Source: Pseudomonas phage HPP-Temi. From it: a stretch of DNA of 64,000 nt. The notes under the pieces are model-generated. The model had not been told where the DNA came from. It did no database searches and worked only from the letters and a program-made list of their open reading frames with translations. The first letter of the stretch is position 1. Each line of letters starts with the position of its first letter. Below are positions 10,559 through 64,000 of this stretch, one piece after another. The stretch lies in the sequence record PP968062.1. One strand, written 5' to 3'. Made by a program: the position numbers and the translations under genes.

Positions 10559-10717
10559 AACGTAAGATCGAGAAGCCCAAAGCTCGATCGAAAGGGACTG
10601 AGAGACTGCGGGTAGCTCAGTATAATCTAACGCCGCCCAATTCAAGAGAGTAGCTTCGGCTACTCTTTTATGCCGTGATGTTATACTCCAATATCGGAGT
10701 TATAGGAGATACTGAAA

Positions 10718-11374: not shown

Positions 11375-11442
11375 CAATATATCCTACAATTTATTCAAAC
11401 AGATTATCTTATGAACTAAATTGTTTACTTGAGAGCACACTC

Positions 11443-13290
11443 ATGTTTGAATTATTGTTATCAGCTGCTGGGCAAGCTAAGCCAGTGGAAATGATACCGT
11501 ATAACCAACCAACATTGTTTGGACAACTGGATGTTGGATTGGTTGGATCGGTACCCTATTTCAGAAATGGTTTATTAAATATTAATAGTGGTGCCCCATC
11601 AAGAAGTACAACTGATAATAACATCAGAATTTTTGATAGCACTGGTACTCAAATCAGTAAAACAGCTGTCCAAAATAGTTATTCACTTTGTCATACGGCG
11701 GGTGTATTTGTTCCAACATCCGATAGACTTTACATGTTCGGTGGGCGTCGTGGCGCTTCTTGGACACAAAACGTCATCACGATGATCAATCCAACTGTAC
11801 CTAATGATAATCTTATTAGTAATCAGTTGATGAATACATCCACTTATAACAGTATCGGCGATTGGGATGGCGGTGAATTTATTTGGGTACTGGAACATGC
11901 AACAGATCTTTTGATTCGCTATAGACTATCGAATAACGTTCGAGAAGTAATGAGTGCCCGGTGCCCTGTTATTCTATCTGGAGCGTATGCATTCTGCCAT
12001 AAAGGGAATTTCTATGTGATGGGTGGATGGAAGAACATCTCTGGCAGTTGGGTTGTTAACCAAGATGTTTATAAATACACCGTTGCTATTAATACATGGA
12101 CATTGTACCATTCATACTCCACAGACTACCACGGTGGTCATCAAGGTGGTAAGTACTGGAACGGGACTTTTAACTACACTATCGTTAAAGATGGTAAGAT
12201 TCATTGTGTTCGTTATTATATCGCCGAAAAACAATTTGTTGTTACTGAGACGAATATTGGTGAGGTCCATGGGACATCAGTCGCATTAAATCCATCGAAT
12301 GGCGATCTGTATCTGATCGGTGGTTCGGACATTGTTATCGATGACGCCCTTTTTAACACCCCTGAAAGAACGAAAGCAGCTATCTATAAATTCACTATTC
12401 CTATCCCTCCAAGTAAAACTGAATGGGAAGTAATGGCAAACGCACCTTATGATAGTCGAGGTTCCACTGCGGTTGTAATAGATGATGAACTGTATATGTT
12501 CGGCGGGTATACAAGTACAGGTGCATATAGAGGCGCGTTTAATAAATATAATCCTGAGACTAATACATGGAACGGTCTATTCACTGGATCTGGTTTAAGT
12601 CCGAGTGCCCGTGCTAATATGTGTGCAGCTGCAAATGATACACATATGTACCTATTCAGTGGATCTAACCAATCAGCAGATTTCTGGCGTTATAACGTAG
12701 CGACCAATGATTGGACGGCTATTACACCCGCTTCTCCGGGTTCATCTAATCCAGTATTTAGAACACAAGCTACGATGGTTCATTATAATGGTAAGCTCTA
12801 TTTGCTTGGTGGGAATAATGAATCTGACGCGTTGTTCGTCTACGATATTGCATCTAACATGTGGTCAAAACGAGTTGCGCAAGGTGGCATCCAACGATCT
12901 TCACATAGAGCGGTTGTTGTCGGCGAGTACATGTATGTCTATGGTGGATTTGTAAATGGTTCGCAATCCGGTCGATTTGATCGAATGAATATGAATACAT
13001 TTGCATGGGAGTCTCTACCGACTACCGATGGTCCCGGTGTTAACAGTTACGGTGTAATGCTGACTAACGATGAAGAAATTATATACATTGGCGGCGCTGA
13101 CGAAGACAAACGTAGAAAAGCCAATGCGTATAATATCCAATCGAGAACTTGGCGTAAACTACCAGAACTACCAAACGGTGTGAATGATGGCTATGGTGGA
13201 TTTATTAATGGCACAGCATATGTTGGCGGTGGTCTAACTGGAGCCAATAATAATACAATTACAGACAAGTTCTATCGTCTTGGAATTTAA
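11443..13290 (+). CDS. Kelch-repeat beta-propeller protein
   Basis: 615 aa with at least 8 repeats carrying the hhY(M/L)hGG signature (LYMFGG, FYVMGG, LYLIGG, LYMFGG, MYLFSG, LYLLGG, MYVYGG, IYIGG) and W/Y-rich spacing. Confidence 0.8.
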   Translation: MFELLLSAAGQAKPVEMIPYNQPTLFGQLDVGLVGSVPYFRNGLLNINSGAPSRSTTDNNIRIFDSTGTQISKTAVQNSYSLCHTAGVFVPTSDRLYMFGGRRGASWTQNVITMINPTVPNDNLISNQLMNTSTYNSIGDWDGGEFIWVLEHATDLLIRYRLSNNVREVMSARCPVILSGAYAFCHKGNFYVMGGWKNISGSWVVNQDVYKYTVAINTWTLYHSYSTDYHGGHQGGKYWNGTFNYTIVKDGKIHCVRYYIAEKQFVVTETNIGEVHGTSVALNPSNGDLYLIGGSDIVIDDALFNTPERTKAAIYKFTIPIPPSKTEWEVMANAPYDSRGSTAVVIDDELYMFGGYTSTGAYRGAFNKYNPETNTWNGLFTGSGLSPSARANMCAAANDTHMYLFSGSNQSADFWRYNVATNDWTAITPASPGSSNPVFRTQATMVHYNGKLYLLGGNNESDALFVYDIASNMWSKRVAQGGIQRSSHRAVVVGEYMYVYGGFVNGSQSGRFDRMNMNTFAWESLPTTDGPGVNSYGVMLTNDEEIIYIGGADEDKRRKANAYNIQSRTWRKLPELPNGVNDGYGGFINGTAYVGGGLTGANNNTITDKFYRLGI

Positions 13291-13334
13291 TAAATACTGG
13301 TATGGTAATACTATGTAAGACTATACCAGATTTC

Positions 13335-13423
13335 GGAGAGATAGGAAAATTGGTAACCCCAGCTGACTGTAAATCAGCCGTCCGTATCGGGCATTACTGG
13401 TTCGAGTCCAGTCCTCTCCACCA
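13335..13423 (+). tRNA. tRNA-Tyr(GUA), type II, CCA encoded
   Basis: Anticodon stem-loop AGCTGA-CTGTAAA-TCAGC, long variable arm, T-arm GGTTCGAGTCC, acceptor GGAGAG.../...CTCTCCACCA. Confidence 0.65.
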
Positions 13424-13435
13424 ATGCGTCATAGT

Positions 13436-13458
13436 GCTCTCCCTCCGGGGAGAGCTTT
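13436..13458 (+). terminator. hairpin gctctccctccggggagagc followed by TTTATG (the ATG is the start codon of the next gene)
   Basis: GC stem-loop seen in sequence. Confidence 0.5.
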
Positions 13459-14022
13459 ATGCCAATTAACACAAAAGGAAATAACATGTCAGCATTAAGT
13501 TTGATTCAACGATGGGCGCCGGAGGCACCGAGGATTCTCCTCCATGCTAATGACAAGCCCTCCACTACAAAGATGGTTCTCGATAAAGATCACGGGGAAT
13601 ACATGAAGTTTAACGACTTCCTGATCCTCCTTAAGAACGGTATCTTTATTGAAGCTACGAAAGATCTTCATGAAACGCTGCTAGATGGTAGAGCACAACA
13701 AGACCTCATGGCTCGACTGGGTCGTATGGGTTATGAAGACTTCGATCAAGTCATGCGTGTATTGGAAGAACAACGTAGTACTGTTCTCAAAGAGAAAGAG
13801 TATGAAATCTGGCAAGAGGGCCATCAAGCATCTGGTGATTCCAGTAAAGCTCATCTCGTTGGTAAGGCTACAGGTTACTCTTTCCTCGATGCTGTAGACA
13901 ACTACATGAAGACAGCCAGTAAAGATACGAAAGACTGTTTCCGTGCTGAACTGGATGCAGCCTATATCTGGGGTTGCCGTCTGTATGACAATGAAATCGA
14001 TGCACGTAAATCTTTCGGGTGA
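13459..14022 (+). CDS. hypothetical protein
   Basis: 187-aa ORF. Confidence 0.65.
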   Translation: MPINTKGNNMSALSLIQRWAPEAPRILLHANDKPSTTKMVLDKDHGEYMKFNDFLILLKNGIFIEATKDLHETLLDGRAQQDLMARLGRMGYEDFDQVMRVLEEQRSTVLKEKEYEIWQEGHQASGDSSKAHLVGKATGYSFLDAVDNYMKTASKDTKDCFRAELDAAYIWGCRLYDNEIDARKSFG

Positions 14023-14025
14023 TCT

Positions 14026-14460
14026 ATGATTCCTAAACTTTCTGTTGCTGATATCCGTAGTAAACAAACTCCTGAACAACTGGCCAATAACCGGGAGAAA
14101 ATCCTGGAAGCAGTCGAGCGTTACCATGCTGCTCAACGAGAGCTTGAAACCTACTGTGAACGTAATGGGTTAGAAGTACCTATCCTAGTCTGTAACTCCA
14201 TGGCAGTTAACAAAGGTATTCCTTCTCGTCTCTCTATGCACGTAATGGTTCAACTCGGTATTGGTGATTATACCAGTCGAATGAACATGAACGCTATCCA
14301 ACTCAGTGATATGATCGAACGTGATCTAACCGATCTTTGGAACAAGCATTATGAGAATGAGTGGATTGATTGGAAACCTTCCGTTAATACATTCCTCTGC
14401 AATGGCCAATATATCATCCAAGTCTTCTTGGGTCGCGAAAAGATCATGGAGTTGAAATGA
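14026..14460 (+). CDS. hypothetical protein
   Basis: 144-aa ORF starting 3 nt after the previous stop. Confidence 0.65.
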   Translation: MIPKLSVADIRSKQTPEQLANNREKILEAVERYHAAQRELETYCERNGLEVPILVCNSMAVNKGIPSRLSMHVMVQLGIGDYTSRMNMNAIQLSDMIERDLTDLWNKHYENEWIDWKPSVNTFLCNGQYIIQVFLGREKIMELK

Positions 14461-14606
14461 CTACTGAAGTCAAAAAAGAAAAGCGACATAGAGGGCGACA
14501 AGCCCTCAATGCAGTTGGTGAAATCATCGGTGCTATATTCGAAGGCATCTGGTGGATCCTGACCTGTCCGTTCCGTTTAATCGGTGCACTCTGTACACTC
14601 GATTAA
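14457..14606 (+). CDS. small membrane protein (49 aa)
   Basis: ATGA overlap with the upstream stop. The protein is basic at the N-terminus and hydrophobic at the C-terminus (IIGAIFEGIWWILTCPFRLIGALC). It is below the ORF-track size cutoff. Confidence 0.4.
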   Translation: MTTEVKKEKRHRGRQALNAVGEIIGAIFEGIWWILTCPFRLIGALCTLD

Positions 14607-14956
14607 AAAGAATACTTGGTTGGTTACAGTATGTAACGAACAAAGTTACTTCATCGAAATGCTGCCCGTTGAAACATCTCACGCTAGGTCCAGCAGACTG
14701 TATCGTTTCGATGTGACCTTTATAGCTCCCGGAAACCAAAGGCTAATTGTGGCAAGCCAATGCTTGAGGGAAGTCGATTGGGCCGACCCTAGAGAAAGGT
14801 GTCTCTTCAGTTCCACTGACTGTACCTAACGAGGGATATCAAGATCAATAAGAGACTGGTTTTGGTATTCGACATACAGCTCTCCGTTAAGGAGAGTTTT
14901 ATGCCGTTTTATACTGGGTACTATAACAGTATGTTAAAGGTCGTAAAGAGGTACAC

Positions 14957-15316
14957 ATGACTACATTCATGCCTAGTCACGCAGAAGCTGATATTGATGT
15001 TGCTTCAAGAAACAAAATGCTGTCTGAACTGCTTATAGAAGAGTTCCCTAATACCGAAGGAATGTCCACCGCAGCAGCTGAAGACTATCTACGTTCTAAG
15101 GTCGTAGATAAATTCAACATTAACCATCCGGAATACACAGCTCACGTTAGTTACGATTGTACAGCTCGTGGCGATTTCATCACAGCTTGGGTAACCCGTA
15201 AGCTCGCCTTAATCAAATTGAAAGTTACATCAGAGGAACCAAAATGTTCGAAAACGCAGAATTCAAAGATGATGGCCTTGGGGCACTCATTACGGAAATT
15301 TTTGGTCGGAACCTGA
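14957..15316 (+). CDS. hypothetical protein
   Basis: 119-aa ORF whose 3' end overlaps the next ORF. Confidence 0.45.
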   Translation: MTTFMPSHAEADIDVASRNKMLSELLIEEFPNTEGMSTAAAEDYLRSKVVDKFNINHPEYTAHVSYDCTARGDFITAWVTRKLALIKLKVTSEEPKCSKTQNSKMMALGHSLRKFLVGT

Positions 15317-15459
15317 ACCAGAAGTTCCAAGAATGGTACAGCCCACTGATGGCTGATCCGACTATAGAAAAGGTTCCAGTCTGCCGAGGTGGGCAGGTTG
15401 TTAAAGAACCAGCTAACTTCGTAGCTCTTGTAAAAGAGTGGTTAGCGAATCAAGAATAA
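15244..15459 (+). CDS. hypothetical protein
   Basis: 71 aa with a good SD gaggaa. Confidence 0.5.
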   Translation: MFENAEFKDDGLGALITEIFGRNLNQKFQEWYSPLMADPTIEKVPVCRGGQVVKEPANFVALVKEWLANQE

Positions 15460-15557
15460 GTTTACTGAGAAGTAAACCATATGTAAGAGTTAATGTCGGT
15501 GGTATCCCTTAACTTAACGGTCGGATGCGAAAAGTGCATCGGTGTTAACTCTTCATT

Positions 15558-15633
15558 GGGAGCATAGGCGAATTGGTATAGCCAGCTGGTTTAGGTCCAG
15601 CCGTCGTAAGACACTGTGGGTTCGAGTCCCTCT
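15558..15633 (+). tRNA. tRNA-Leu(UAG), type II, CCA encoded
   Basis: Acceptor GGGAGCA/TGCTCCT, anticodon stem GCTGG/CCAGC with loop TTTAGGT, long variable arm, T-loop TTCGAGT. Confidence 0.7.
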
Positions 15634-15857
15634 GCTCCTACCATTTACTAGATTCTTGTGTAATACTATACGAGAATATTCAATGACTCTGCATGTTCTC
15701 CGGGTATATCCCATAATTGCTATTCTACTCCTCCCTTAAAAGGATAGCATTTAAAGGTTGCGATGACTAATCGTAATGCAGGGTGATTAATAGTGCCGAC
15801 TATAGCGAGGGTCGGGTCTACACTTAACTGGTGGATTCCAGTACTCAATTCAAATTC

Positions 15858-15886
15858 AGCCGTTATAGCTCAGCAGGTAGAGCAAC
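15858..15886 (+). pseudogene. tRNA 5'-half fragment (paralog of tRNA-Asn acceptor and D-arm) truncated by the HNH gene
   Basis: GCCGTTATAGCTCAGCAGGTAGAGCA is nearly identical to the 5' half of the tRNA-Asn at 10483. No anticodon or T-arm follows; instead the HNH ORF begins. Confidence 0.55.
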
Positions 15887-15890
15887 TAAA

Positions 15891-16298
15891 ATGAGAATAG
15901 ATCTTGATTTTCCGTTTAACCAAGATTGGACTCATGGATATCTTAACAGTCAAACAACAGGTCGTCGGATTGTACATCTCCATGATGGTTCAGGCAAAAC
16001 GAAGACAGTTAGTTATGCAAGATATCTAGTCTCTGTGGAGCTAGAACGTCATCTTGAGAAAGATGAAGAAGTGGATCACGTTGACGATAATTTCGAAAAC
16101 GATAAACTACTTAATCTCCAAATTTTAACACCCCGGCAGAACAGAGCAAAGCAAGGTCCTCTAAATAGAGTAGACGTTGTACATGGTTCTTTAACAGCGT
16201 ACCGTTATTGTAAATGTGATATTTGCAAACTCGGTAAAAGTCTGTGGTCTAAGGGTGACAAAATTGGATACGAAAAAAATCTGGCCAACGTAGCATAG
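15891..16298 (+). CDS. HNH homing endonuclease
   Basis: HNH core EVDHVDDNFENDKLLNLQILTPRQNRAK. The gene sits inside the tRNA cluster, and its 3' end overlaps the next tRNA by about 15 nt. Confidence 0.75.
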   Translation: MRIDLDFPFNQDWTHGYLNSQTTGRRIVHLHDGSGKTKTVSYARYLVSVELERHLEKDEEVDHVDDNFENDKLLNLQILTPRQNRAKQGPLNRVDVVHGSLTAYRYCKCDICKLGKSLWSKGDKIGYEKNLANVA

Positions 16299-16370
16299 CG
16301 GTCGACTGCAATGGATTTGTAATCCATCGACTAACGTCCATCGTGAGTTCGAATCTCACCGTTGGCTCCA
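16284..16370 (+). tRNA. tRNA with anticodon UGU (Thr) but an unusually long variable arm, CCA encoded
   Basis: Acceptor GCCAACG/CGTTGGC, anticodon stem ATGGA/TCCAT with loop TTTGTAA, T-arm GTGAG-TTCGAAT-CTCAC, roughly 15-nt variable region. Confidence 0.5.
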
Positions 16371-16376
16371 GTAATA

Positions 16377-16461
16377 CCCAGTGTGGCAGAGTGGTTTAAT
16401 GCACCAGCGAAAAGCTGGCGACAAGTCCTACGAGTCCATAGGTTCGAATCCTATCACTGGC
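16377..16461 (+). tRNA. tRNA-like gene with Ser-type D-loop but a 5-nt anticodon loop (atypical or pseudo-tRNA)
   Basis: D-arm GGCAGAGTGGTTTAATGC, T-arm ATAGG-TTCGAAT-CCTAT and 3' CACTGGCCCA are recognisable. The anticodon arm CCAGC-GAAAA-GCTGG has only 5 loop nt. Confidence 0.35.
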
Positions 16462-16609
16462 CCAGTTTTTGAAATTAGTTGTAAGATGGTAAGGTACAGC
16501 CCGAATCACATTAAAGGAGCCGCCCGGTGATTCATGATGGGTGCATGGGTACAAGTCGAGTGATAAAACGAGTCGCCTTTCACTCCTGCTAATTTCAAAA
16601 AGCTATTCA

Positions 16610-16687
16610 GGTTCCATAGTCGAGTTGGTTAAGACGCTTGCCTGTCACGCAAGAGATCGTCGGGTTCGAGTCCCACTGGAATCGCCA
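16610..16687 (+). tRNA. tRNA-Asp(GUC)
   Basis: Acceptor GGTTCCA/TGGAATC, anticodon stem CTTGC/GCAAG with loop CTGTCAC, T-arm GGGTTCGAGTCCC, 3' end GCCA. It resembles E. coli tRNA-Asp. Confidence 0.85.
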
Positions 16688-31713: not shown

Positions 31714-32229
31714 TCAGAATCTGTACATCAAAACATCGTCAGGATAACGACGTAGTAGAACTCTAAAGTCCGTATCCATAGGAGCTGTAGTGATGGTAAC
31801 AACTTTACCCTTCATTACTTCTCGAATGTTAACTTCTTCAACAGTGACATTATGGATTGTCTTACGAGTAGTCCATTCAGTGTCAATGTTGTTATACGGG
31901 TTATTGTTCTTCTGCCATCCATCAGACTCTCTGAAAGGAATGGTGTATACGTAGATAGTCAGCTTGAGGAACTCTTCAAGCGTGATCAGTCGGTCAGCAA
32001 AGATCCAGATGTCTCCATTGATCTCTACGAATCGATGAGAGTTAAACTCTTTCTCTACCGCGCTACCAATACCTAACAATTCAGCCTCTCGTTTGTCAGA
32101 GGACGCGTACAGGTTAAGGTTAGATTCAACCCCATCCCAAACGGTTAACTTACCTGACCTTTTAAAGCCCGGCATGAGTTCCTTCTGCTTGTAGAGAGAA
32201 CCGTGATACAACAGCTCTGGTTTGTCCAT
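31714..32229 (-). CDS. hypothetical protein with N-terminal LYHGS motif (possible Tpt1/KptA-like or H-Y-E class ADP-ribosyltransferase fold)
   Basis: 171 aa. The segment LLYHGSLYK....GFKRSGKL..W resembles the KptA segment LYHGT...AGERHYVHL. The match is weak. Confidence 0.55.
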   Translation of the reverse strand: MDKPELLYHGSLYKQKELMPGFKRSGKLTVWDGVESNLNLYASSDKREAELLGIGSAVEKEFNSHRFVEINGDIWIFADRLITLEEFLKLTIYVYTIPFRESDGWQKNNNPYNNIDTEWTTRKTIHNVTVEEVNIREVMKGKVVTITTAPMDTDFRVLLRRYPDDVLMYRF

Positions 32230-55150: not shown

Positions 55151-55185
55151 AGGACATAAAGCCCTCCCCGAAGGGAGGACCTCAT

Positions 55186-55458
55186 TCAGAGAGCGTAAGA
55201 CTCAACGATAGGGCCAACTAGGTAGCCCACCCATATAGCCATTACACACGGCATTGCAAAATCATGCATGTCCATCCAACGCTTGAACCACTTGGGAGAA
55301 CGCTTGAACACCCACTTCCAAATATCTCGCGCTTTGAATTGGATATACACGTAGAACCAGATGGAGACACCGATGAACAGAAATATTGCAGCCTTCTCAT
55401 GGTAAGCCGAGATGTAAGCTGTAATGATGCCAACGATGATCGCTAGGTAGTATTGCAT
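55186..55458 (-). CDS. membrane protein
   Basis: 90 aa with multiple hydrophobic helices. Confidence 0.5.
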   Translation of the reverse strand: MQYYLAIIVGIITAYISAYHEKAAIFLFIGVSIWFYVYIQFKARDIWKWVFKRSPKWFKRWMDMHDFAMPCVMAIWVGYLVGPIVESYAL

Positions 55459-56063
55459 TATACCTCCAGTTTGGCGAGCGCTTCATCCAGGAACATTTTG
55501 AACACATCTCGTACAACCGGATGCGCTTTCGTCATCCGATTATAGAGATCGAGTTTCTCGTTGAGGAACACCGGAGCAAACTTCGGAGAGTCTTCAACAA
55601 TAACGTAGACGTTAGTCAGAGACTCGATCAGTTTACAGGTTTGCGTGATATCGCAGCACGACTCCAGTTGGGTGTGGTAAGTATCAATACGAACTTTGCG
55701 CGGAGCATCGAAGTTCGGTTGAGTCAAACCTTTCACAAGCCTGGTGATATAAGGAGTGAAGTGAACCAATACATCTTCAATGGTCCAACTACTATCCTCA
55801 ACAATGTCATGAAGCCACAAAGCAGCTTGCTCACCGGGTCCCAGGCCGAATACCTTGGCGATGGTAGCGGAGTTGTGTAAGTGGGTCCATACAGGCAAAC
55901 CAGAGCCTTTACGACGCTCTCCTGATCCGATCGTGTAACCTACCCCAATAGCGGCTGCCAACTCTACAGTATGGTGCCCTTTCCATAGCGGAAGCACGTT
56001 CGCTGGAAGGCGAGTATCCAAGATAGCTTTAACTTGCTGATATGCTTCTGCTACTACGTCCAT
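55458..56063 (-). CDS. HD-domain phosphohydrolase
   Basis: 201 aa; H..H...LHDIVED pattern (HLHNSATIAKVFG ... ALWLHDIVEDS). Confidence 0.6.
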   Translation of the reverse strand: MDVVAEAYQQVKAILDTRLPANVLPLWKGHHTVELAAAIGVGYTIGSGERRKGSGLPVWTHLHNSATIAKVFGLGPGEQAALWLHDIVEDSSWTIEDVLVHFTPYITRLVKGLTQPNFDAPRKVRIDTYHTQLESCCDITQTCKLIESLTNVYVIVEDSPKFAPVFLNEKLDLYNRMTKAHPVVRDVFKMFLDEALAKLEV

Positions 56064-56099
56064 AACTTACTCCAGGGTGAATAAAATTTCGGTTTTCCC

Positions 56100-56579
56100 T
56101 TAATTGGGGAAAAGGATATGCTCATTGGGATCAATAAAGAAACCACAATTGACGAGGATAACATCCATCCAGGTTTTAGTCTGGAGGATACCTACCTCAT
56201 GTGCATCTACTAGATCAATGAGATCCAGTGGATCGAATGAACCGTAATACGTAGGTCCATCTTCCAGCTGGAATTGGTAGAAGCGGAGTCTCGATGTGTC
56301 CTCTTCATCCAACGGATCAAGAGTATCATCTGCATCTTCATCGTCGTCATCCAAACCTAGCATCAGATCTAGTACGTGTTCACGATAAAGGAAACGCTGC
56401 CCACTTTCTACAGTGAACATATGCTTCTTACCTGCAACTGGGATACGGCGTTTGAATTGAGGTTCTGCAATGAAAGCACGATAGCTTTCTTCCAGACCAT
56501 CAGCTCGACCACAGGCCAGCGTTGAGGAACGGATAGCGGTTAACATCACTGCTTCCAAGATTGGATGCATCTCAATCAT
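56100..56579 (-). CDS. acidic hypothetical protein
   Basis: 159 aa with the Asp/Glu-rich stretch DDDEDADDTLDPLDEED. Confidence 0.55.
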   Translation of the reverse strand: MIEMHPILEAVMLTAIRSSTLACGRADGLEESYRAFIAEPQFKRRIPVAGKKHMFTVESGQRFLYREHVLDLMLGLDDDDEDADDTLDPLDEEDTSRLRFYQFQLEDGPTYYGSFDPLDLIDLVDAHEVGILQTKTWMDVILVNCGFFIDPNEHILFPN

Positions 56580-56663
56580 TGCTGCCTCCTATTGACAGGT
56601 TGATGATCACTTACATGATGTAGATCTAAGATAATTTTTAACAAAAAGAAAAACGATAAAAGT

Positions 56664-56690
56664 CCCTCTCCCGAAGGAGAGGGCTTTATA
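56664..56690. terminator. hairpin ccctctcccgaaggagaggg followed by CTTTATAT
   Basis: GC stem-loop seen in sequence. Confidence 0.6.
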
Positions 56691-56694
56691 TCAC

Positions 56695-57087
56695 TTAGGC
56701 TTTCGGTGCGTCGCAGTTCTGCGCGATATTACGAAGAACTTCTTTCAGGAGAGCACGCATCCAACCTTCGGAACGAATACCTTGACGGTACTTATGTATG
56801 ATGGTTATCCGCCCGATAGCATCCTTATCGAACTCGTATTCGATCCAGCTGGTTTCTTTATTACGAGTAACCGTCACATTGATAATGAAGCGATCAGGAG
56901 CTTCCGATTTCCAGTCAATGCGAACATCGACTTTGTGATCATCAGGACCTTCGGCGTTCTCTACGATGTACGGAAGTTTCTCCGGGGTTACCTTGTCCAG
57001 GATGAATTGGAACAGGGCAATAGCCACTGCATCGTATTCAACATGGTACAGCTCATTACGACGGAGACGGTGAAATTCCTGATCCAT
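56695..57087 (-). CDS. hypothetical protein
   Basis: 130 aa. Confidence 0.55.
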   Translation of the reverse strand: MDQEFHRLRRNELYHVEYDAVAIALFQFILDKVTPEKLPYIVENAEGPDDHKVDVRIDWKSEAPDRFIINVTVTRNKETSWIEYEFDKDAIGRITIIHKYRQGIRSEGWMRALLKEVLRNIAQNCDAPKA

Positions 57088-57096
57088 ACCTGTTCC

Positions 57097-57435
57097 TTAG
57101 CGAGTAACGTACTCGGCCCACTTGATGAGAGTTTCAGCTGCTTCACGATAGAGCTCTGCCGATTCGATGCAACCCCGCGTACCGAAATGCAGGATGACTA
57201 CACCACCGTCATGCACGAATGCATCAAAGTGGAGAATCCCCGGACCCGTACCAACAGCGAACGTCCAGGTCTTTACAGTTTCATCAGCACTGGTGTCACC
57301 GATGATGACCTGAGTACCGTTGCAAAAGTGAGTTCGAGTTTCACTCAAGCAATTCGGATTGGTCGTGATCGTATCGGTTACGACCGTGATGATGGTTTTC
57401 TTCCACAACTCTTGGTAACGCTTATCAACGTCCAT
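57097..57435 (-). CDS. hypothetical protein
   Basis: 112 aa. Confidence 0.55.
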   Translation of the reverse strand: MDVDKRYQELWKKTIITVVTDTITTNPNCLSETRTHFCNGTQVIIGDTSADETVKTWTFAVGTGPGILHFDAFVHDGGVVILHFGTRGCIESAELYREAAETLIKWAEYVTR

Positions 57436-57450
57436 TGACTACCCTCCTTA

Positions 57451-57852
57451 TTACTTGATGCTCGGCATGATCGGTTTGCCATTCTGATCACAGTGGGAAG
57501 AACAGTAAGCAACTGCCTCAGTGAACAGGCTGTTGACTTCCTCCATGTCGGAGATGATGTCATCGGACATCGTACCGCCAACCAGCTGGAAGTCAACACC
57601 GCCAGGAACACCGTAGCTGTATTCCTGAGTGATGTGCCAGATACGATCAGAGACCGTAACTTCAGCACGTACCATGCTCAGACGACGATCGACCGATTCG
57701 TGGTGGAAGGTGACAGTCGCGTCACCGACTTCTACCGTGGGGAGAGCATTGGCAGCTTCACGACGGAAGGAGTTGTTGTAGTAAACGAAGATGGCTTCTG
57801 CTACACGTTGCAGAATGGTGATATGTACACTGGTTTGAATTTCAGCGTTCAT
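57451..57852 (-). CDS. hypothetical protein
   Basis: 133 aa. Confidence 0.55.
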   Translation of the reverse strand: MNAEIQTSVHITILQRVAEAIFVYYNNSFRREAANALPTVEVGDATVTFHHESVDRRLSMVRAEVTVSDRIWHITQEYSYGVPGGVDFQLVGGTMSDDIISDMEEVNSLFTEAVAYCSSHCDQNGKPIMPSIK

Positions 57853-57914
57853 GAGAATTCCTCTATTGATTATCGATGGTCTTCTTTACGTATTTGAATG
57901 ATAGTCTTTCGAAT

Positions 57915-57993
57915 ATCATATTTGTAATGTAGGCTTTTAAAACGTTTAAATACAAAAAAAAAGAAATAAACATGGGGAGCCGAAGCTCCCCTA
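57915..57993 (-). promoter_or_regulatory. conserved promoter-like element (tttgtaatgtaggcttttaaaacgtttaaatac), A9 tract, and terminator hairpin ggggagccgaagctcccc
   Basis: Motif copy together with one of three identical ggggagccgaagctcccc hairpins (57974, 61740, 63673). Confidence 0.5.
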
Positions 57994-57996
57994 TGC

Positions 57997-58557
57997 TTAG
58001 ATAGAACGACACAGGGTAGAATCGAGATTCTGGGTGGATTCCAGGAACACCGAACGCAGATCGATGCCCCAACCACTAATGGCTTCAGCAGCCTCGGGCC
58101 AATATTCGGTACCAAGAGGACTCTCGAAGGCGAAACGAGGGCCGTCGAGATCACGCAGAGTGAACTTGTTAGCATCAATCAGTTCCAGGTGTTGTACCAG
58201 AATGTGGTAGATCACTTGACACAGAATCGACTTACCACGGTGATTACCACCCAGAACCGCGATACGGAGTTCTTTGCTCCACAGTGGATTGATGGCATTG
58301 TTTACCGGGGGAGATACCTTAGTACCACACGGATGAATAGCGTGCTCACTGACAGTCAGATGATAGCCATCAGCCTTGAATCCACTCAAGATTACAGCGG
58401 AATCGAGATCACCATAGTCTTCACGACCATTGTGTATTACTTCGTGGTTAAGACCAAGAGAGGTAAACCCATTAGAAAGCATATTCCGGATAGCCAGGCT
58501 GGTTGCAGGGTCATCAGTGAGAACGAGGATTTGGTTACGTACGTGGTTATACAGCAT
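57997..58557 (-). CDS. hypothetical protein
   Basis: Start at an internal Met with an SD aagga. The track ORF runs to 58644. Confidence 0.55.
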   Translation of the reverse strand: MLYNHVRNQILVLTDDPATSLAIRNMLSNGFTSLGLNHEVIHNGREDYGDLDSAVILSGFKADGYHLTVSEHAIHPCGTKVSPPVNNAINPLWSKELRIAVLGGNHRGKSILCQVIYHILVQHLELIDANKFTLRDLDGPRFAFESPLGTEYWPEAAEAISGWGIDLRSVFLESTQNLDSTLCRSI

Positions 58558-58731
58558 TTTGTTTTTCCTTGATTTCGTTAAAGGTCTTTTCGTAGAGGGG
58601 TGCAGTGAGATGGCTTTCAGGGAACACGGGTGCTCCACTTCCACCTCTTACCCAACGGATGTAGGTAGTGGGGTCAAACAGATTACTGCGATTGATTTTT
58701 ACTGGTCATTGAAATATCCTAGTGGATATAA

Positions 58732-58755
58732 AGCCCAGCCTAAGCTGGGCATTTA
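58732..58755. terminator. hairpin gcccagcctaagctgggc followed by ATTTATG
   Basis: GC stem-loop seen in sequence. Confidence 0.55.
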
Positions 58756-58871
58756 TGTTATCAGATCCAGTCTTCCTCTTTGGTGATGATACCATCGTAT
58801 TCATCAGAAGAAACACCTTCACCAACACCGATGTAGTCTTCCCAAGAATCAGAAACCTTCATAGTCGTCTC

Positions 58872-59177
58872 TCATATAACTTTCCTTACACGGATGGTCA
58901 GTGTTGCGCCATCGTCACTCTTGAAACGGAACAGAGCGGTACCCGGTTCCCAAATCGAAGGAATGACTTTGACGACCCAGTTACGAGCCTTTTTACGGCT
59001 GCGTATATAATGGTCGAGTGCACTGCTAAGCTGCTCCGACCAATGATACTTCTCGAAGTGAGCGATTACCTGGAGGACGTACTCCTTATCACCAACGAAA
59101 GTAGCACGATCGTTCATGTAGTTGGGGATACCAACAGTGAAGACAGCGTGAAGGTGTTGACAAGCGGAAAGGAGCAT
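58872..59177 (-). CDS. hypothetical protein
   Basis: Start at an internal Met with an SD gaggt. The track ORF runs to 59264. The plus-strand ORF 58722..59204 is judged spurious. Confidence 0.5.
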   Translation of the reverse strand: MLLSACQHLHAVFTVGIPNYMNDRATFVGDKEYVLQVIAHFEKYHWSEQLSSALDHYIRSRKKARNWVVKVIPSIWEPGTALFRFKSDDGATLTIRVRKVI

Positions 59178-59435
59178 ACCTATTATAACCTCTGGAGAGT
59201 TTGACTGATGATTTCTATACCGAGCCAGCAACCACTTAAAAAAGCAATCCAGAACCATGTCCAAGGAGAAACCCCTTCGAACAAATTAAACCGTTCTCTT
59301 GGAATAAACTCGACTTGAGGGTCAATTACTCTTTGACTAGGTGGTATAGTGCGAACGATGGGGTCAACCTTTATTTGGATTGGTTCTTTAGCTATCGGCG
59401 GTACCGGTACTAAGGATTGGATATCGCGATAGATA

Positions 59436-60005
59436 TCACGGACGTCCGTAACTCTGGTCGGCGTCTTCGATGAGCTCTGCGTAGTAGTTCGGGTTTCCCA
59501 CGATAGCCTTGTAGGGGGCCTGGACGTACGCCTTGTAGTACTCTTCATCATAGGCAATCCTTGTGTTGATGTCCCCGTTAAAGAGACGATAGGGCTGGGC
59601 ACCGATCTTCTCCGCAAAGGCTCGAACACGAGCAATGGTTACAGGATAACCTTCAAGGCGCTTACGATCGATGGAGTAAAGAACACTCACATCGTAATTG
59701 AAGAAACTGTTAGTAAGAGTGTAACCCTTATCAACAGCTTCATCATAAGTCTTTTCCAGATAGTCCAGTTTGTTATTGACCACAGTGGCCCATTGATTGA
59801 TCCGGAAGTCTTCTTCCTTGATCAAACGAGGAGCATGTTCAATACGACCCTGGGTTTCTGGTTGAATATCGTGAGCGTCCAACCAATGTTTGGCATCGTT
59901 CAGACGCTCGGGGATTACTTGCGGACCCATCGGGGTACTGGCACAGAACTCTTCTATGAATTGTTCTAGTAAACCTTTTCTAGTCAGTTGCTCAAGGATC
60001 TTCAT
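59436..60005 (-). CDS. hypothetical protein
   Basis: Start at an internal Met whose ATG overlaps the upstream stop (ATGA). Confidence 0.6.
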   Translation of the reverse strand: MKILEQLTRKGLLEQFIEEFCASTPMGPQVIPERLNDAKHWLDAHDIQPETQGRIEHAPRLIKEEDFRINQWATVVNNKLDYLEKTYDEAVDKGYTLTNSFFNYDVSVLYSIDRKRLEGYPVTIARVRAFAEKIGAQPYRLFNGDINTRIAYDEEYYKAYVQAPYKAIVGNPNYYAELIEDADQSYGRP

Positions 60006-60562
60006 TTGAAACGCTCCAGGAAAGTCCAACGTTCGTAAGGGCTGTAAACACGCAGACCAGGATTGGTGATCAGTTCGAGTTGGCCGCCTTCTACGTAAGG
60101 ACGCATAGCCAGTACGAAGTCCTCTTCCGCTCCACGGCAGTTGAGATCAACGTCAGGATCGAAGGTGAAGTCTTCTTTGACGAGGGCGATCATCATATTA
60201 CCTTTCAGATCACTGCCGCTATAGACAGGACGAGGGAACAGAACGATCATCTCACCAGCTTTGTAGTCTTTACGACCAGCAGTCATGGTTTCGAACAGAG
60301 TCTCGGTACGGTCACGCAGGTCTTCCACAGTAGTGGGAAGATGGCGACCACGCAAGAACTTAAGACCGAGATCATGGCGATACACGGTAACTACGTCCGG
60401 GTTGAAGTCGAGCTCTTCCGGAGTAGCATCTTCATAACACGCATGCTTGAAGTCTTCAGTCAGACCACACTTACGAACGATGTCAAAAACATCAGTCGGT
60501 TGCAGTGGAGTCTCTTTACGTTTTTCCAGAGGAGATACAGACAGATCAGGAGTTTCGGACAT
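60002..60562 (-). CDS. hypothetical protein
   Basis: 186 aa. Confidence 0.6.
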   Translation of the reverse strand: MSETPDLSVSPLEKRKETPLQPTDVFDIVRKCGLTEDFKHACYEDATPEELDFNPDVVTVYRHDLGLKFLRGRHLPTTVEDLRDRTETLFETMTAGRKDYKAGEMIVLFPRPVYSGSDLKGNMMIALVKEDFTFDPDVDLNCRGAEEDFVLAMRPYVEGGQLELITNPGLRVYSPYERWTFLERFK

Positions 60563-60614
60563 TTGAGTTTCCTAGTTAAGGTTGATAACACATTATCAGA
60601 GAACTGAGTACTTT

Positions 60615-61067
60615 CTAGTCAGTCCTTCTAAAGGCTTCTTTCCATCCCCGTTTCCAATTGTACTTCGGTGATGAGATCTTAGCGAAGCCATCATCGCTCA
60701 TGAAAATGAAGTGATCACGTTCAACGATCTTTACAATCGCATCAGGAGTATCGGCGTTAGCACGAATACATTCCTTAGCCTGCTTAACGTAGTTACCCCA
60801 TTCATCGATGTAACCTTCTTTGATTTCGTCTACTCGTCCAATCCACATACGAGGAGCGAATAGATAACGGAACCAACCGATGAACAGAATGTAGGATAAC
60901 CACACACCCAGTAACAGAGTACAGAACCACAGAGCGGTAAAGAACGTATGTCCGTCACAGGGAGAAGCTGTGGTCAATTCATGCCAACCACGACGAATCC
61001 AACTGATAGGATTCCACCAGACGATCTCCGCTTTAGGTTGACTGGCGTAACGATGGAATAAGGACAT
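60615..61067 (-). CDS. membrane protein
   Basis: 150 aa; TM region TFFTALWFCTLLLGVWLSYILFIGWF. Confidence 0.55.
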   Translation of the reverse strand: MSLFHRYASQPKAEIVWWNPISWIRRGWHELTTASPCDGHTFFTALWFCTLLLGVWLSYILFIGWFRYLFAPRMWIGRVDEIKEGYIDEWGNYVKQAKECIRANADTPDAIVKIVERDHFIFMSDDGFAKISSPKYNWKRGWKEAFRRTD

Positions 61068-61069
61068 AT

Positions 61070-61351
61070 TTAATCCTTCACGTCGAGAATGGTTTCCCAG
61101 GATTTGTCAGTCTTCAGCTGAATCTTGATTTGGTGCGTATACATCGAGTCCGAATATTTCCTGAATACACTTTTCAGAATGTGTTGCCACCAAGGCATGT
61201 AACGACTGTAACTGACAGTGAAATACTGGTTAGGATCGTAAGCTTCTAGAGCTTTACGAATCGTTTCGGCAAAGAAAGCAAACGCATACACGTTGTTATT
61301 ATACAACAGAGCTGCAATAGCTTTCTTAGGGCCGACGAGGTTTACCTTCAT
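61070..61351 (-). CDS. hypothetical protein
   Basis: 93 aa. Confidence 0.5.
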   Translation of the reverse strand: MKVNLVGPKKAIAALLYNNNVYAFAFFAETIRKALEAYDPNQYFTVSYSRYMPWWQHILKSVFRKYSDSMYTHQIKIQLKTDKSWETILDVKD

Positions 61352-61730
61352 GGAAAATGTCCATCACGTCAATGGTGGTACTATACTCAACACGAGCATA
61401 CCCAGGTTCTTCGAAGATGACGATGTTGAATTGACCGTCACGCCAAACAAACTTGAAGTAGTTACGAACTGCACTAATCAGGTCTTCTTGGAACTCAGGA
61501 TGGGCGTGTTCTGCCCGGATGAGTCGACAGATCTTCCAGAGAGCGTTGTCGAACTTGTAGTAGACTCGCCGCCCTTCTTCGCCCATCTCTTCCGACAGAA
61601 TACCGACAGTCTGAAGAATAGGAGAGAGTACAGGATCACTCTTCCAGTTAGTTAGCAGGTAGAGTTCCTCACTATCAAGAGCGCGAGCCAGAAACTTTAG
61701 AGCTTGAGACATGTGGTCACCTTTTAACAA
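61326..61730 (-). CDS. hypothetical protein
   Basis: 134 aa. Confidence 0.55.
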   Translation of the reverse strand: MLKGDHMSQALKFLARALDSEELYLLTNWKSDPVLSPILQTVGILSEEMGEEGRRVYYKFDNALWKICRLIRAEHAHPEFQEDLISAVRNYFKFVWRDGQFNIVIFEEPGYARVEYSTTIDVMDIFHEGKPRRP

Positions 61731-61739
61731 AAAATAAAT

Positions 61740-61763
61740 GGGGAGCCGAAGCTCCCCTTTATG
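61740..61763. terminator. hairpin ggggagccgaagctcccc; on the minus strand it is followed by ATTTATTTTTTGTT
   Basis: GC stem with GAAG loop and a U-rich tail on the minus strand, directly after the stop of the ligase gene. Confidence 0.7.
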
Positions 61764-63128
61764 TCACTCAGCCGAAGCTTGCGCTTCTTTAGCAGCGGCT
61801 TTCTCTTCCTCTTTTTCCTTCTTGAGCAAGTAGCTGTTCGATATGGATTTCCAGGAGAGTACACGTTGGTTGGACTTGAAGACCAGACCTTCGCGGTAGC
61901 CACGTTTGTTCTTGAACGCGGACGGACCTTCAGCCATTGCCAGGACATCTTTAACAGAGGTCTCAGCGGTAGGCTTCCAGGCCGGATCGAATACCGGTAC
62001 GTATTTCAGGCCGAGTTCTTTCACGATGGAACGTGCTTCAGCCGGCAGTAGTTCACGATTGCCATCTTCGTAGACGTTGAACACGAAGTAATCGTAATCG
62101 GCTACTTCTTCAAAGTTATCCTGAATGGACGGGCCAATCAGTTCACCCTGTACGGAGATGTAGCGACCAGTGGTGGCCTGGAAGTTGCGCAGACGTTCGA
62201 TGATCTGCTGTTGATTGGTAACACGTACGAAGTTGTTGTCTTCGATAGCAGTACCTTTTGTCCACAGGGGCCAGATGATACCGTTACGAAGTTTACCTTC
62301 CGGAGTAATCCAGGTCTTCTTGCGGAATACGTTACGGTTACGGATCAGGAAGTTGCCGACCCAGTAACGCAGTTGTTGCAGGAAGCCCCACTTCTCACCA
62401 CCCATACCCAGCTCGTAGTTACGCGAGCAAACGCCAGTACGAACACCTTTATCTTCTACGCAGAACACGGTCATGGAGCTACCATCGAGTTTGTAGGTAA
62501 CTTCCATGTCATCGCCGGCTTCTTTTAGGGTATTGAAAGCAACGGTTTTGTTCTGGATACGATCTTGGTCAGACTTGGTCAGCATTACAGGCCAGGGCTT
62601 CAGCGCGCCACCCAGATCACCAATCAGCTTGACAGCTAGCTTGACGATCCACGGAGCGTTACGTGCAGCGTGAGCTTTCGGTACCATCGGAGGAGCAGAC
62701 TCGTATTTCAGGATACCCAGCTTCAGAGTCAGGTTAGTATCAACCGGCTCGTCTTTGAACTCTTCCGGAATAGGAACCAACAGACCCTGGGACAGCTCTT
62801 TGCGAAGCTTGATGGTTTTCAGACGATGATAGTTCTTACCATCTACACGACGGTTATCGGAACGACGAGCTTCCAGGAAACCGAACAGTGGGATGTTGTC
62901 CAGCGGAAGCAGAGAGTCGATCTCGCAATAGATAGCACGATCGCCTTTCTTGTACTCACCGAGTTTTACGCACAGTTGCCAACCACCAACAATTGCCAGT
63001 TCCAACGCGTCTGCGTTCGGGTGCTTGACTACGTCGTCGATTTCAACGATACGTGCCAGCTTACGAGTTTCTTCTACAACGCCGAAGCCTTCGCGGATCG
63101 GTTTGAGTTCTTCCATTTCGAGAGTCAT
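61764..63128 (-). CDS. ATP-dependent RNA ligase with N-terminal tRNA-binding (Myf/EMAP/CsaA-like OB) domain
   Basis: 454 aa. The N-terminal segment VVKHPNADALELAIVGGWQLCVKLG..GDRAIYCEIDSLLP matches the HPNADKL...VDVG tRNA-binding fold. Nucleotidyltransferase motifs occur in canonical order: I YKLDGSS, III ISVQGELIG, IV REGLVFK, V YLLKKEK. Confidence 0.75.
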   Translation of the reverse strand: MTLEMEELKPIREGFGVVEETRKLARIVEIDDVVKHPNADALELAIVGGWQLCVKLGEYKKGDRAIYCEIDSLLPLDNIPLFGFLEARRSDNRRVDGKNYHRLKTIKLRKELSQGLLVPIPEEFKDEPVDTNLTLKLGILKYESAPPMVPKAHAARNAPWIVKLAVKLIGDLGGALKPWPVMLTKSDQDRIQNKTVAFNTLKEAGDDMEVTYKLDGSSMTVFCVEDKGVRTGVCSRNYELGMGGEKWGFLQQLRYWVGNFLIRNRNVFRKKTWITPEGKLRNGIIWPLWTKGTAIEDNNFVRVTNQQQIIERLRNFQATTGRYISVQGELIGPSIQDNFEEVADYDYFVFNVYEDGNRELLPAEARSIVKELGLKYVPVFDPAWKPTAETSVKDVLAMAEGPSAFKNKRGYREGLVFKSNQRVLSWKSISNSYLLKKEKEEEKAAAKEAQASAE

Positions 63129-63635: not shown

Positions 63636-63693
63636 GTAATATAGATCTGAAAAAAATTTTATTGACATAAAGGGGAGCCGAAGCTCCCCCATG
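63636..63693 (-). promoter_or_regulatory. conserved promoter-like element (gtaatatagatctgaaaaaaatttt) and terminator hairpin ggggagccgaagctcccc
   Basis: Near-identical to the cassette at 53735..53800. Confidence 0.5.
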
Positions 63694-63697: not shown

Positions 63698-63970
63698 TTA
63701 CAGAGATGCAGCAATCCGTTCCCGGATCTTAGCCATCGTGTCGTGTTTGTAGAACTCACCATTCTTGAAGAACAGTTTCAGTTCACCCGATTCGGTTTCC
63801 AAAGCATCCCAACTAAGGTCAGCTTCTTGTTCCAGAACGAACTTACCATCTTCGGTCTTCACTACATGCAGGAAACCTTTAGCCGACTTCTTGGAAGAAG
63901 CAGCTTTAGGATCTTTGTACAGCTCAACGAACTCGTCTTCGATCTGAACAGCAGTAGCTTTGACAGCCAT
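63698..63970 (-). CDS. hypothetical protein
   Basis: 90 aa; a further minus-strand gene continues beyond the window end. Confidence 0.55.
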   Translation of the reverse strand: MAVKATAVQIEDEFVELYKDPKAASSKKSAKGFLHVVKTEDGKFVLEQEADLSWDALETESGELKLFFKNGEFYKHDTMAKIRERIAASL

Positions 63971-64000
63971 GCCGAAAGTATCGCGAGTGTTGTACTGATA

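Follow-up and report, generated by a model that had tools for sequence, protein, structure and literature searches.

Three minus-strand genes of Pseudomonas phage HPP-Temi: an Rnl5-family RNA ligase, a predicted small alarmone hydrolase and a protein with an ADP-ribosyltransferase fold

The 64,000-nucleotide stretch of Pseudomonas phage HPP-Temi analysed here (sequence record PP968062.1; hereafter the window) carries three genes that a sequence-only reading had proposed to act together in tRNA repair, namely a ligase, an HD-domain phosphohydrolase and a Tpt1-like protein. All three open reading frames (ORFs) lie on the minus strand where that reading had placed them, and encode a ligase of 454 amino acids (aa) at 61764..63128, an HD protein of 201 aa at 55458..56063 and a 171-aa protein at 31714..32229. 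We computed family and fold membership, catalytic-residue conservation, gene layout and phage distribution for these genes, and we infer from these their substrates and physiological roles. The source phage is a phiKZ-like, nucleus-forming jumbo Pseudomonas phage of the PhiPA3/PA1C-like kind, an assignment made because its complete relative HHBS36_1 encodes a nuclear shell protein (chimallin) and PhuZ tubulin, and because the window itself contains a match to a phiKZ internal head protein. An 8.5-kb region that includes the ligase gene aligns over >90% of its length, at ~77% DNA identity, with seven ~300-kb Pseudomonas aeruginosa jumbo phages; relatives that match this region include HHBS36_1, phiLBG22, phiHQ, BRkr, PS119XW and PA1C. 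Close homologs of the proteins under study are also carried by PhiPA3, Phabio, Psa21 and 201phi2-1.

By its sequence relationships, the product of 61764..63128 is an ATP-dependent RNA ligase of the Rnl5 family (DraRnl/NgrRnl-type), as evident from matches in Pfam, NCBIfam and PHROGs and from alignment with entries of the Protein Data Bank (PDB). Pfam recognises PF21189 (‘PHA02142 OB-fold’, 1.7e-24, aa 24-120) followed by PF09414 (RNA_ligase, 2e-18), and the PHROGs match is phrog_968 (‘RNA ligase’, 6e-114). The NCBIfam model TIGR02306 (RNA_lig_DRB0094) aligns at 2e-42 over model positions 2-341 of 341 with a score of 145.3 bits against an equivalog cut-off of 151.15, a shortfall that probably reflects a 55-aa insertion. 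The sole solved relatives are entries for the Naegleria gruberi RNA ligase (5cot and others; 3e-46, with ligase residues 21-437 aligned). NgrRnl is the structural prototype of Rnl5, a family founded by DraRnl (DRB0094) of Deinococcus radiodurans, whose hallmark is an OB module at the N-terminus fused to a C-terminal adenylyltransferase domain (PMC7261155, PMC1807946). The window ligase likewise joins an N-terminal OB domain to a C-terminal nucleotidyltransferase domain and has no C-terminal accessory domain, as Rnl5 requires. A nucleotidyltransferase ligase with a tRNA-binding-type OB fold had been recognised from the sequence without naming this family, and that description is borne out. The accompanying remark that the enzyme is not obviously Rnl1- or Rnl2-type is also correct, since the domain order is reversed and the Rnl2 model TIGR02307 reaches an E-value of only 0.055 (13 bits against a cut-off of 197). 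Human C12orf29/HsRnl was considered as a possible tRNA-ligating relative and set aside, as it belongs to another, minimal ligase family and its paper does not call it Rnl5.

The active site of the ligase is complete. When conservation was scored on an alignment of 41 diverse homologs, K213 (motif I), E329 (motif III), E413 (motif IV), K427 (motif V) and R190 proved invariant in all 41. These residues correspond to K170, E227, E312, K326 and R149 of NgrRnl, respectively, whose catalytic roles have been described, including that of R149 as the arginine contacting the gamma-phosphate (PMC7261155). Motifs I (K213LDGS), III (GE329LIG) and IV (E413GLVFK) are therefore as the sequence-only reading gave them. 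Its motif V, KKEK at aa 436-439, has to be replaced, because positions 437-439 are variable and the tail from residue 440 is missing in most homologs. The actual motif V is S425-W-K427-S-I-S430. In the OB domain, R22, D71 and K141 match R4, D53 and K121 of NgrRnl, residues that hold the gamma-phosphate of ATP and orient the PPi leaving group; R22 is conserved in at least 90% of the homologs and the other two residues are invariant.

The N-terminal OB domain (about aa 22-142; 62703..63065, minus strand) is of the tRNA-binding structural type represented by Trbp111, CsaA, EMAPII and PheRS-beta B2, and its barrel is structurally closer to tRNA-binding domains than to other OB classes. To this extent the earlier description of a tRNA-binding OB fold stands. 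It finds no counterpart at the profile level, where the isolated domain fails to match tRNA_bind (PF01588) and Pfam lists PF21189 alone, even at E-values up to 10. Run against all PDB sequences, a profile built from this domain alone recovers NgrRnl at 5e-26; the remaining matches, to YgjH and two MetRS C-terminal domains, are non-significant (E 0.4-1) and cover 23-27 residues in the beta1-beta2 ‘HPNAD’ stretch. Raymond and Shuman (2007) had described the N-terminal module of DraRnl as a putative homolog of the PheRS-beta B2 OB fold (PMC1807946), and the tRNA-binding-type fold of the Rnl5 OB domain is thus already published rather than new. The role demonstrated for this domain in DraRnl and NgrRnl is not tRNA binding. 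Rather, it promotes ligase adenylylation by contacting the pyrophosphate (PPi) leaving group (PMC7261155, PMC1807946).

The window ligase is ~110 aa longer than NgrRnl, and the bulk of the excess lies between motifs I and III. Here the NgrRnl alignment breaks at a variable insertion (aa 243-319; 62172..62402, minus strand), such that the segment measures 77 aa in the window ligase versus about 22 in NgrRnl, and from 28 to 100 aa among the homologs. Basic and aromatic residues abound in the insertion, and conserved Trp, Arg and Asn positions give it the consensus W..Q.R.W...F...NRR...P.W..G. It may serve as an extra element for binding nucleic acid.

The product of 55458..56063 is a predicted stand-alone small alarmone hydrolase (SAH) with a RelA/SpoT-type HD domain, and not an RNA end-healing enzyme, as judged from its profile and PDB matches. 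It scores 26.3 bits (6.8e-6) against Pfam PF13328 (HD_4), for which the gathering cut-off is 27.2, and two close homologs carry precomputed PF13328 annotations; the NCBIfam model spoT_relA matches at 1.6e-5. All of its PDB matches are Rel/SpoT hydrolase domains or MESH1. An exhaustive HMMER search returned 1388 relatives, mostly single-domain proteins of 165-210 aa, and a profile built from 81 family sequences finds human MESH1 (1e-30), Rel/SpoT hydrolase domains, SAHs (4e-21) and a (p)ppApp hydrolase among PDB sequences, and nothing else. The protein is a single domain with no synthetase domain. Its HD motif is real, with H61, H85, D86, E89, D90, R122 and N151 invariant in an H...HD...ED...N signature. 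The fourth metal-ligand position is occupied by E147, where 76 of the 81 relatives have Asp; the five with Glu are the HD protein and its four closest relatives (39-90% identity), making this a clade-specific feature. By tblastn, the protein aligns with the SAH of Salmonella phage SSU5 (34% identity, 8e-8) and with proteins of phiKZ and PhiPA3 whose annotations read phosphohydrolase or GTP pyrophosphokinase-like. The generic HD family (PF01966) is unmatched at E-values up to 1, and the genes neighbouring the HD gene encode no Pfam domains. The proposal that this protein heals 2',3'-cyclic or 3'-phosphate ends is therefore contradicted by profiles that match RelA/SpoT-type hydrolases solely, with no RNA end-healing HD enzyme among them. 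An HD phosphoesterase of the HD-Pnk or CCA-enzyme type is likewise unsupported, given the missing PF01966 match and the lack of a kinase in the window or among the annotated genes of HHBS36_1.

The 171-aa protein (31714..32229, minus strand) belongs to a family that includes phiKZ PHIKZ282 and PhiPA3 gp341, and for which sequence searches alone provide little guidance: it has no match in Pfam, NCBIfam or PDB sequences, and its PHROG is of unknown function. All of its homologs (57 in the databases and 65 phage records) come from phiKZ-like jumbo phages, with members also in 201phi2-1, Phabio, Noxifer and Erwinia phage Wellington, and every one of these listed records is labelled ‘hypothetical’ or is mis-annotated. 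On the strength of a fold match and the family alignment, we are confident in predicting an ADP-ribosyltransferase (ART) fold with a complete H-Y-E triad, and in stating that the protein is not Tpt1. In structure it is closest to the NAD lobe of Tpt1, with 77 of 179 residues aligned, and a BFVD fold search yields an uncharacterised relative plus weak Arr-like and ART-PolyVal-like matches. The invariant triad comprises H9 (LYHGS, in the strand spanning residues 6-11), Y41 (LYA[ST], strand 40-43) and E118, at the start of strand 118-121, an arrangement that fits active H-Y-E transferases. Of the two possibilities offered by the sequence-only reading, a Tpt1/KptA-like 2'-phosphotransferase or an H-Y-E ART, the second is favoured. 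The ART strand begins at residue 6, so that an RNA lobe at the N-terminus is missing; the residues invariant across 34 family members include no Arg and, K60 aside, are all acidic, polar or aromatic; and the Tpt1 profile PF01885 matches neither the query (E-values up to 1) nor any of the 34 members (E-values up to 10), whose weak Pfam matches are to ART-PolyVal only.

These three genes are also spread widely along the window, with the 171-aa gene at 31.7 kb, the HD gene at 55.5 kb and the ligase gene at 61.8 kb. They had been described as lying in the same early region. This is a loose description, as the HD gene is 6 kb from the ligase gene with at least three terminator-like hairpins in between, and the 171-aa gene is 30 kb away. 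The ligase gene is bracketed by two identical terminator-like hairpins, one of which, GGGGAGCUUCGGCUCCCC with a U-rich tail, sits 7 nucleotides past the ligase stop codon (61740..61757, minus strand), and the other lies between the gene for nicotinamide phosphoribosyltransferase (NAMPT) and a small ORF upstream of the ligase (63672..63690, minus strand). A third exact copy of GGGGAGCUUCGGCUCCCC (57974-57991, minus strand) and a further hairpin (58733-58750) are located between the ligase and HD genes. The HD transcription unit is flanked as well, by a hairpin upstream (56664-56683) and by a terminator-like hairpin that closes the unit (55156..55185, minus strand). The three exact copies of GGGGAGCUUCGGCUCCCC, each with a UUCG tetraloop and U-rich tail and each sitting just after a minus-strand stop codon, compare with 0 expected by chance, and they look like a reused intrinsic-terminator cassette. 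A fourth, variant copy at 43743-43760 differs by two changes, yet its stem still pairs (GGGGACC...GGGTCCCC).

The phage distributions of the three genes differ in turn. Homologs of the ligase occur in 337 phage records, those of the HD protein in 100 and those of the 171-aa ART in 65, the last being jumbo phages only. The ligase records (218 from Pseudomonas phages, 44 from Aeromonas phages, and others) include ~90-kb Pakpunaviruses and Aeromonas T4-like phages, and mostly bear the annotation ‘RNA ligase’; PhiPA3 gene 289 has been annotated ‘RNA ligase ... DRB0094 family’ since deposition. The ART is missing from the Pakpunaviruses and Aeromonas T4-like phages that carry the ligase, and the Pakpunavirus PAK_P4 has the ligase beside a MazG-like gene and none of the other genes. 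Conversely, phiKZ has homologs of the HD protein (gp246) and of the ART (PHIKZ282), yet is not named among the relatives of the ligase, and the PhiPA3 annotation ties the HD protein to phiKZ gp246 while tying the ligase to 201phi2-1 only.

The enzymes that a healing-and-sealing pathway would need were sought as well. Among 98 window ORFs surveyed with Pfam, none showed a kinase, phosphatase, 2H, CCA-adding or RtcB domain, and the annotation of the whole HHBS36_1 genome lists no polynucleotide kinase or phosphoesterase. Two HHBS36_1 proteins examined as possible hidden polynucleotide kinases or phosphatases proved ordinary: the oversized ‘thymidylate kinase’ (375 aa) is a genuine Tmk, and a ‘ribonuclease’ is an RNase H. 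PrrC- or RloC-type breaks cannot be mended by an ATP-dependent ligase unless end-healing enzymes accompany it. The family assignments, gene layout and distributions thus speak against the ligase, the HD protein and the 171-aa protein being parts of one pathway. Because hairpins flank both the ligase gene and the HD unit, and because the distributions differ, we treat the three genes as independent, and we favour with moderate confidence the view that they serve separate accessory functions as an Rnl5 ligase, a small alarmone hydrolase and an H-Y-E ART.

What each protein might do can be proposed by homology. The ligase would adenylylate itself on K213, with OB residues R22, D71 and K141 positioning the pyrophosphate leaving group, and would then move AMP onto a 5'-PO4 end and join it to a 3'-OH RNA end in a base-paired context. 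Its task would be to seal 3'-OH/5'-PO4 breaks in structured RNA, with tRNA the most plausible substrate. Breaks of this kind could come from metal-dependent defence nucleases such as PARIS AriB, which leaves 3'-OH/5'-PO4 tRNA ends (PMC12409363), or from nucleotide addition by RlaP. The HD protein may take the 3'-pyrophosphate off (p)ppGpp or (p)ppApp, and tRNA CCA ends that toxSAS defence toxins have pyrophosphorylated are a further possible substrate; such activity would blunt the stringent response or abortive infection. The ART may carry out NAD+-dependent modification of a host (or nucleic-acid) target.

The neighbourhood of the ligase gene bears on its role. The minus-strand frame at 63698..64000 remains open to base 64000 and runs off the window edge; it is the C-terminal part of NAMPT, syntenic with HHBS36_1 CDS0126 (PF04095/PF18127). 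The ligase adjoins NAMPT in seven close relatives. The flank beyond NAMPT was examined in one of these, HHBS36_1 (L002 2460-7976), where the order after the ligase is NAMPT (PF04095), a Prs-like gene, RtcB (PF01139, 1e-128), two small ORFs and RlaP (PF10127, 1e-88). RtcB and RlaP lie about 3.5-6 kb from the ligase in this genome, with RtcB about 3.5 kb away, and an NAD+-salvage pair (NAMPT and the Prs-like gene) is thereby interleaved with RtcB and RlaP beside the Rnl5 ligase. At the equivalent position in PhiPA3 (L009), there are just small hypothetical genes between thymidylate synthase and the ligase. The NAMPT-Prs-RtcB-RlaP island looks like a clade-specific insertion. RtcB joins 2',3'-cyclic-PO4/5'-OH ends directly, whereas RlaP puts one or two nucleotides on damaged RNA 3' ends and helps restore tRNA function, leaving a 3'-OH product that is unusable by RtcB and usable by 5'-phosphate ligases (PMC12776372). 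The phage lineage probably does have a tRNA-repair capacity, via RtcB and RlaP just outside the window; the sequence-only reading had excluded RtcB from consideration. Given these end specificities, the type of end that AriB leaves and the island in HHBS36_1, the division of labour that we favour is that the Rnl5 ligase would cover 3'-OH/5'-PO4 ends and RtcB would cover 2',3'-cyclic-PO4/5'-OH ends.

Several points weigh against the view of three separate functions as we have filled it in. The HD protein falls 0.9 bit below the HD_4 cut-off, and a Glu replaces its fourth metal-ligand Asp. For E118 of the ART, a catalytic role is proposed from its place in the sequence and from secondary-structure prediction. 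For the ligase, the RtcB/RlaP context of the source phage would be that of its relatives, as the window stops at 64000 and neither an exact protein look-up nor a scan of viral contigs with an exact 39-mer recovered the sequence that follows, and PhiPA3, which is more distant and has the same ligase, is without an RtcB/RlaP island beside it. Furthermore, characterised Rnl5 enzymes require a duplex nick, and an anticodon-loop break is not one. The sole in vivo phenotype known for an Rnl5 enzyme, radiation sensitivity in Deinococcus, points to DNA or hybrid repair (PMC5397189).

For the HD protein, we weighed a narrower function, in which it would serve specifically as a tRNA 3'-CCA de-pyrophosphorylase directed against toxSAS enzymes of the CapRel/FaRel2 type, a chemistry unlike that proposed in the sequence-only reading. 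SAHs can strip from tRNA CCA ends the 3'-pyrophosphate added by toxSAS enzymes, and MESH1 and the ATfaRel SAHs restore the aminoacylation competence of pyrophosphorylated tRNA (bioRxiv 10.1101/2021.04.30.441581). Moreover, the stand-alone SAHs of phages SSU5 and PVP-SE1 neutralise every tested toxSAS toxin (PMC7229694), and the HD protein is homologous to the former. However, these same SAHs hydrolyse (p)ppGpp and (p)ppApp too, and the sequence does not reveal which substrate is preferred. The HD protein also differs from known SAHs by its Glu at the fourth metal ligand and by a 45-aa N-terminal extension. This specialised function is accordingly possible but doubtful.

For the ligase, a serious rival, if in our estimation an unlikely one, is that the enzyme seals ribonucleotide-3'-OH nicks in DNA or RNA:DNA hybrids during phage replication and repair, and does not act on tRNA. 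The characterised Rnl5 enzymes seal 3'-OH/5'-PO4 nicks in duplexes with RNA as the 3'-OH strand, DraRnl and NgrRnl accepting DNA or RNA partners; deletion of DraRnl makes Deinococcus sensitive to ionising radiation; and the authors of that work describe the physiological role as ‘uncharted’ and leave open whether DNA, RNA or both are what Rnl5 and Rnl2 enzymes repair (PMC5397189). In PhiPA3 and PAK_P4, moreover, no RNA-repair gene adjoins the ligase. Against a DNA substrate, the phage lineage already encodes an NAD-dependent DNA ligase, the OB fold is of the tRNA-binding type, and the ligase of PA1C-like relatives has NAMPT as its neighbour, followed in HHBS36_1 by RtcB and RlaP. The DNA of a nucleus-forming phage would also be shielded and its cytoplasmic RNA exposed; of this argument, chimallin and PhuZ are seen in the relative and the rest is inferred. 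We therefore continue to prefer a structured RNA, most plausibly tRNA, as the ligase substrate.

A more specific proposal is that the Rnl5 ligase is the missing 5'-phosphate-ligase partner of RlaP in a dual-chemistry island. RtcB would take 2',3'-cyclic-PO4/5'-OH breaks, and the Rnl5 ligase would take 3'-OH/5'-PO4 breaks made by AriB or retron PtuB or arising from RlaP action, with its tRNA-synthetase-type OB fold, and perhaps the phage-specific basic insertion, directing it to tRNA. We judge the full proposal quite unlikely to be correct. If true, it would give the first defined physiological substrate for Rnl5 and would resolve the end-incompatibility between RlaP and RtcB that is apparent from the RlaP preprint.

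It is improbable that the ART acts in a Tpt1-like manner on nucleic-acid phosphate ends, by removing a 2'-phosphate or by capping 5'-phosphates with ADP-ribose. Although Tpt1 provides its best structural match, just the NAD lobe aligns and the RNA lobe is missing. Tpt1 catalysis requires an Arg-His-Arg-Arg tetrad, and the family has no invariant Arg. PF01885 is unmatched throughout, with ART-PolyVal supplying the weak matches, and the invariant Glu118 fits H-Y-E transferases such as PARP, DTX, Arr and DarT.

The weakest proposal is the original one, in which 2',3'-cyclic or 3'-phosphate ends are healed by the HD protein before the OB-ligase joins the tRNA halves and a Tpt1-like protein removes the junction 2'-phosphate, as a toolkit unlike that of T4 for resisting PrrC or RloC; it is largely refuted by the family assignments, and we give it next to no credence even though the ligase carries a tRNA-binding-type OB fold, Tpt1 is the best structural match of the 171-aa protein, the phage encodes tRNAs, an RNA-repair island adjoins the ligase in relatives and the literature mentions HD-type phosphatases among the repair kits of a few jumbo phages (PMC7824862). 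The HD protein is RelA/SpoT-type by every test, no 5'-OH kinase is found in the window or annotated in HHBS36_1, the 171-aa protein has neither the RNA lobe nor a profile match of Tpt1, and the genes are 6-30 kb apart, separated by hairpins and not co-inherited. A 2'-phosphate junction is known solely from sealing by Trl1 or plant-type ligases; these depend on a cyclic phosphodiesterase, and that enzyme is absent here. The RtcB of HHBS36_1, for its part, requires no end-healing.

The tRNA genes of the window number seven by both ARAGORN and Rfam RF00005, and not about ten as had been estimated. They occupy 9451..16687 on the plus strand and comprise Leu-UAA, Asn-GUU, Tyr-GUA, Leu-UAG, Thr-UGU, an aberrant 87-nucleotide tRNA and Asp-GUC, with the 3' CCA encoded in six of the seven. 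The set of Asn-GUU, Tyr-GUA, Asp-GUC and Thr-UGU includes isoacceptors reported to be targeted by tRNA-cleaving defence systems and colicins. The aberrant gene (16377-16463, plus strand) has a long variable arm and the anticodon loop CGAAAAG; ARAGORN calls it Phe-AAA, but position 33 is G and not the near-universal U, no CCA is encoded, and its Rfam score of 39.8 bits is the lowest of the seven. This gene may represent a pseudo-tRNA or a decoy, or else decode in an unusual way.

Elsewhere in the window, the survey of 98 ORFs recorded a multi-Kelch beta-propeller, an AAA/BCS1-like ATPase, an SPFH/Band_7 protein, a GNAT acetyltransferase, DUF1353, DUF4262, the large and small subunits of ribonucleotide reductase (RNR) and dihydrofolate reductase (DHFR). 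Sigma-70 promoter matches in the window occur at the level of shuffled sequence (12 versus 12.0), and PADLOC returned zero matches for the ligase, the HD protein and the 171-aa protein. Beyond the window, HHBS36_1 also encodes a QueC-like protein (L004 230-967). In PAK_P4, an unrelated phage, the MazG-like gene encodes an NTP pyrophosphohydrolase, another type of nucleotide or alarmone hydrolase, two genes after the Rnl5-type ligase (L010 7276-8085).

A three-gene pathway, if true, would have constituted a new phage tRNA-repair toolkit, and it does not hold. Both the ligase and the HD protein add a member to a well-described family of which relatives already carry annotated copies and which has been discussed for jumbo phages. 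An ‘HD-alarmone PDEase’ of such phages is listed by Iyer et al. (PMC7824862), whose ‘KptA’ examples in group-1 jumbo phages may or may not belong to the ART family described here. What is gained is the firm placement of a jumbo-phage ligase in Rnl5, a family whose role is ‘uncharted’, beside an RtcB/RlaP/NAD-salvage island in close relatives, so that what Rnl5 does in vivo can be tested with a tractable phage-host pair. The HD protein probably counters alarmone or toxSAS defence. Finally, the PHIKZ282 / PhiPA3 gp341 family, which is conserved across phiKZ-like phages, receives an ART fold with a complete H-Y-E triad. This assignment is the least documented element here, yet it places the family in a known superfamily.

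Comparison with known systems clarifies what is distinctive about each protein. The window ligase, at 454 aa compared with about 340 for DraRnl and NgrRnl, is phage-encoded and adjoins the NAD-salvage/RtcB/RlaP island in PA1C-like relatives, and relative to NgrRnl it has a 20-aa N-terminal extension and a charged C-terminal tail. The T4 system of Pnk and Rnl1 similarly employs a phage ATP-dependent RNA ligase that needs 3'-OH/5'-PO4 ends, and that plausibly acts against host RNA-cleaving defences. However, T4 Rnl1 belongs to another ligase family and has a C-terminal domain that the window ligase lacks, no Pnk kinase-phosphatase is found in the window or annotated in HHBS36_1, and characterised Rnl5 enzymes favour duplex nicks over anticodon-loop breaks. 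The RtcB-RlaP(-RtcA) operon of Pseudomonas and the jumbo-phage sets provide a further parallel, as HHBS36_1 likewise has RtcB and RlaP, which fits the published jumbo-phage repertoire (Iyer et al. 2021, PMC7824862). Here the genes lie outside the window, RtcA is unannotated, and the Rnl5 ligase and NAMPT/Prs share the neighbourhood.

The HD protein has the same single HD_4-type domain of about 200 aa, and the same signature, as MESH1, SSU5 PaSpo, PVP-SE1 PbcSpo and a P. aeruginosa SAH, from which it is set apart by the Glu in place of the fourth metal-binding Asp and by its ~45-aa N-terminal extension. The 171-aa protein differs from Tpt1/KptA in being without the conserved Arg/His tetrad and in having another C-terminal extension and an invariant catalytic-type Glu. 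Its family has no significant sequence similarity to H-Y-E ARTs (the diphtheria toxin/PARP clade, Arr and DarT) or to the phage proteins AcrF11 and ART-PolyVal and, unlike them, is restricted to phiKZ-like jumbo phages.

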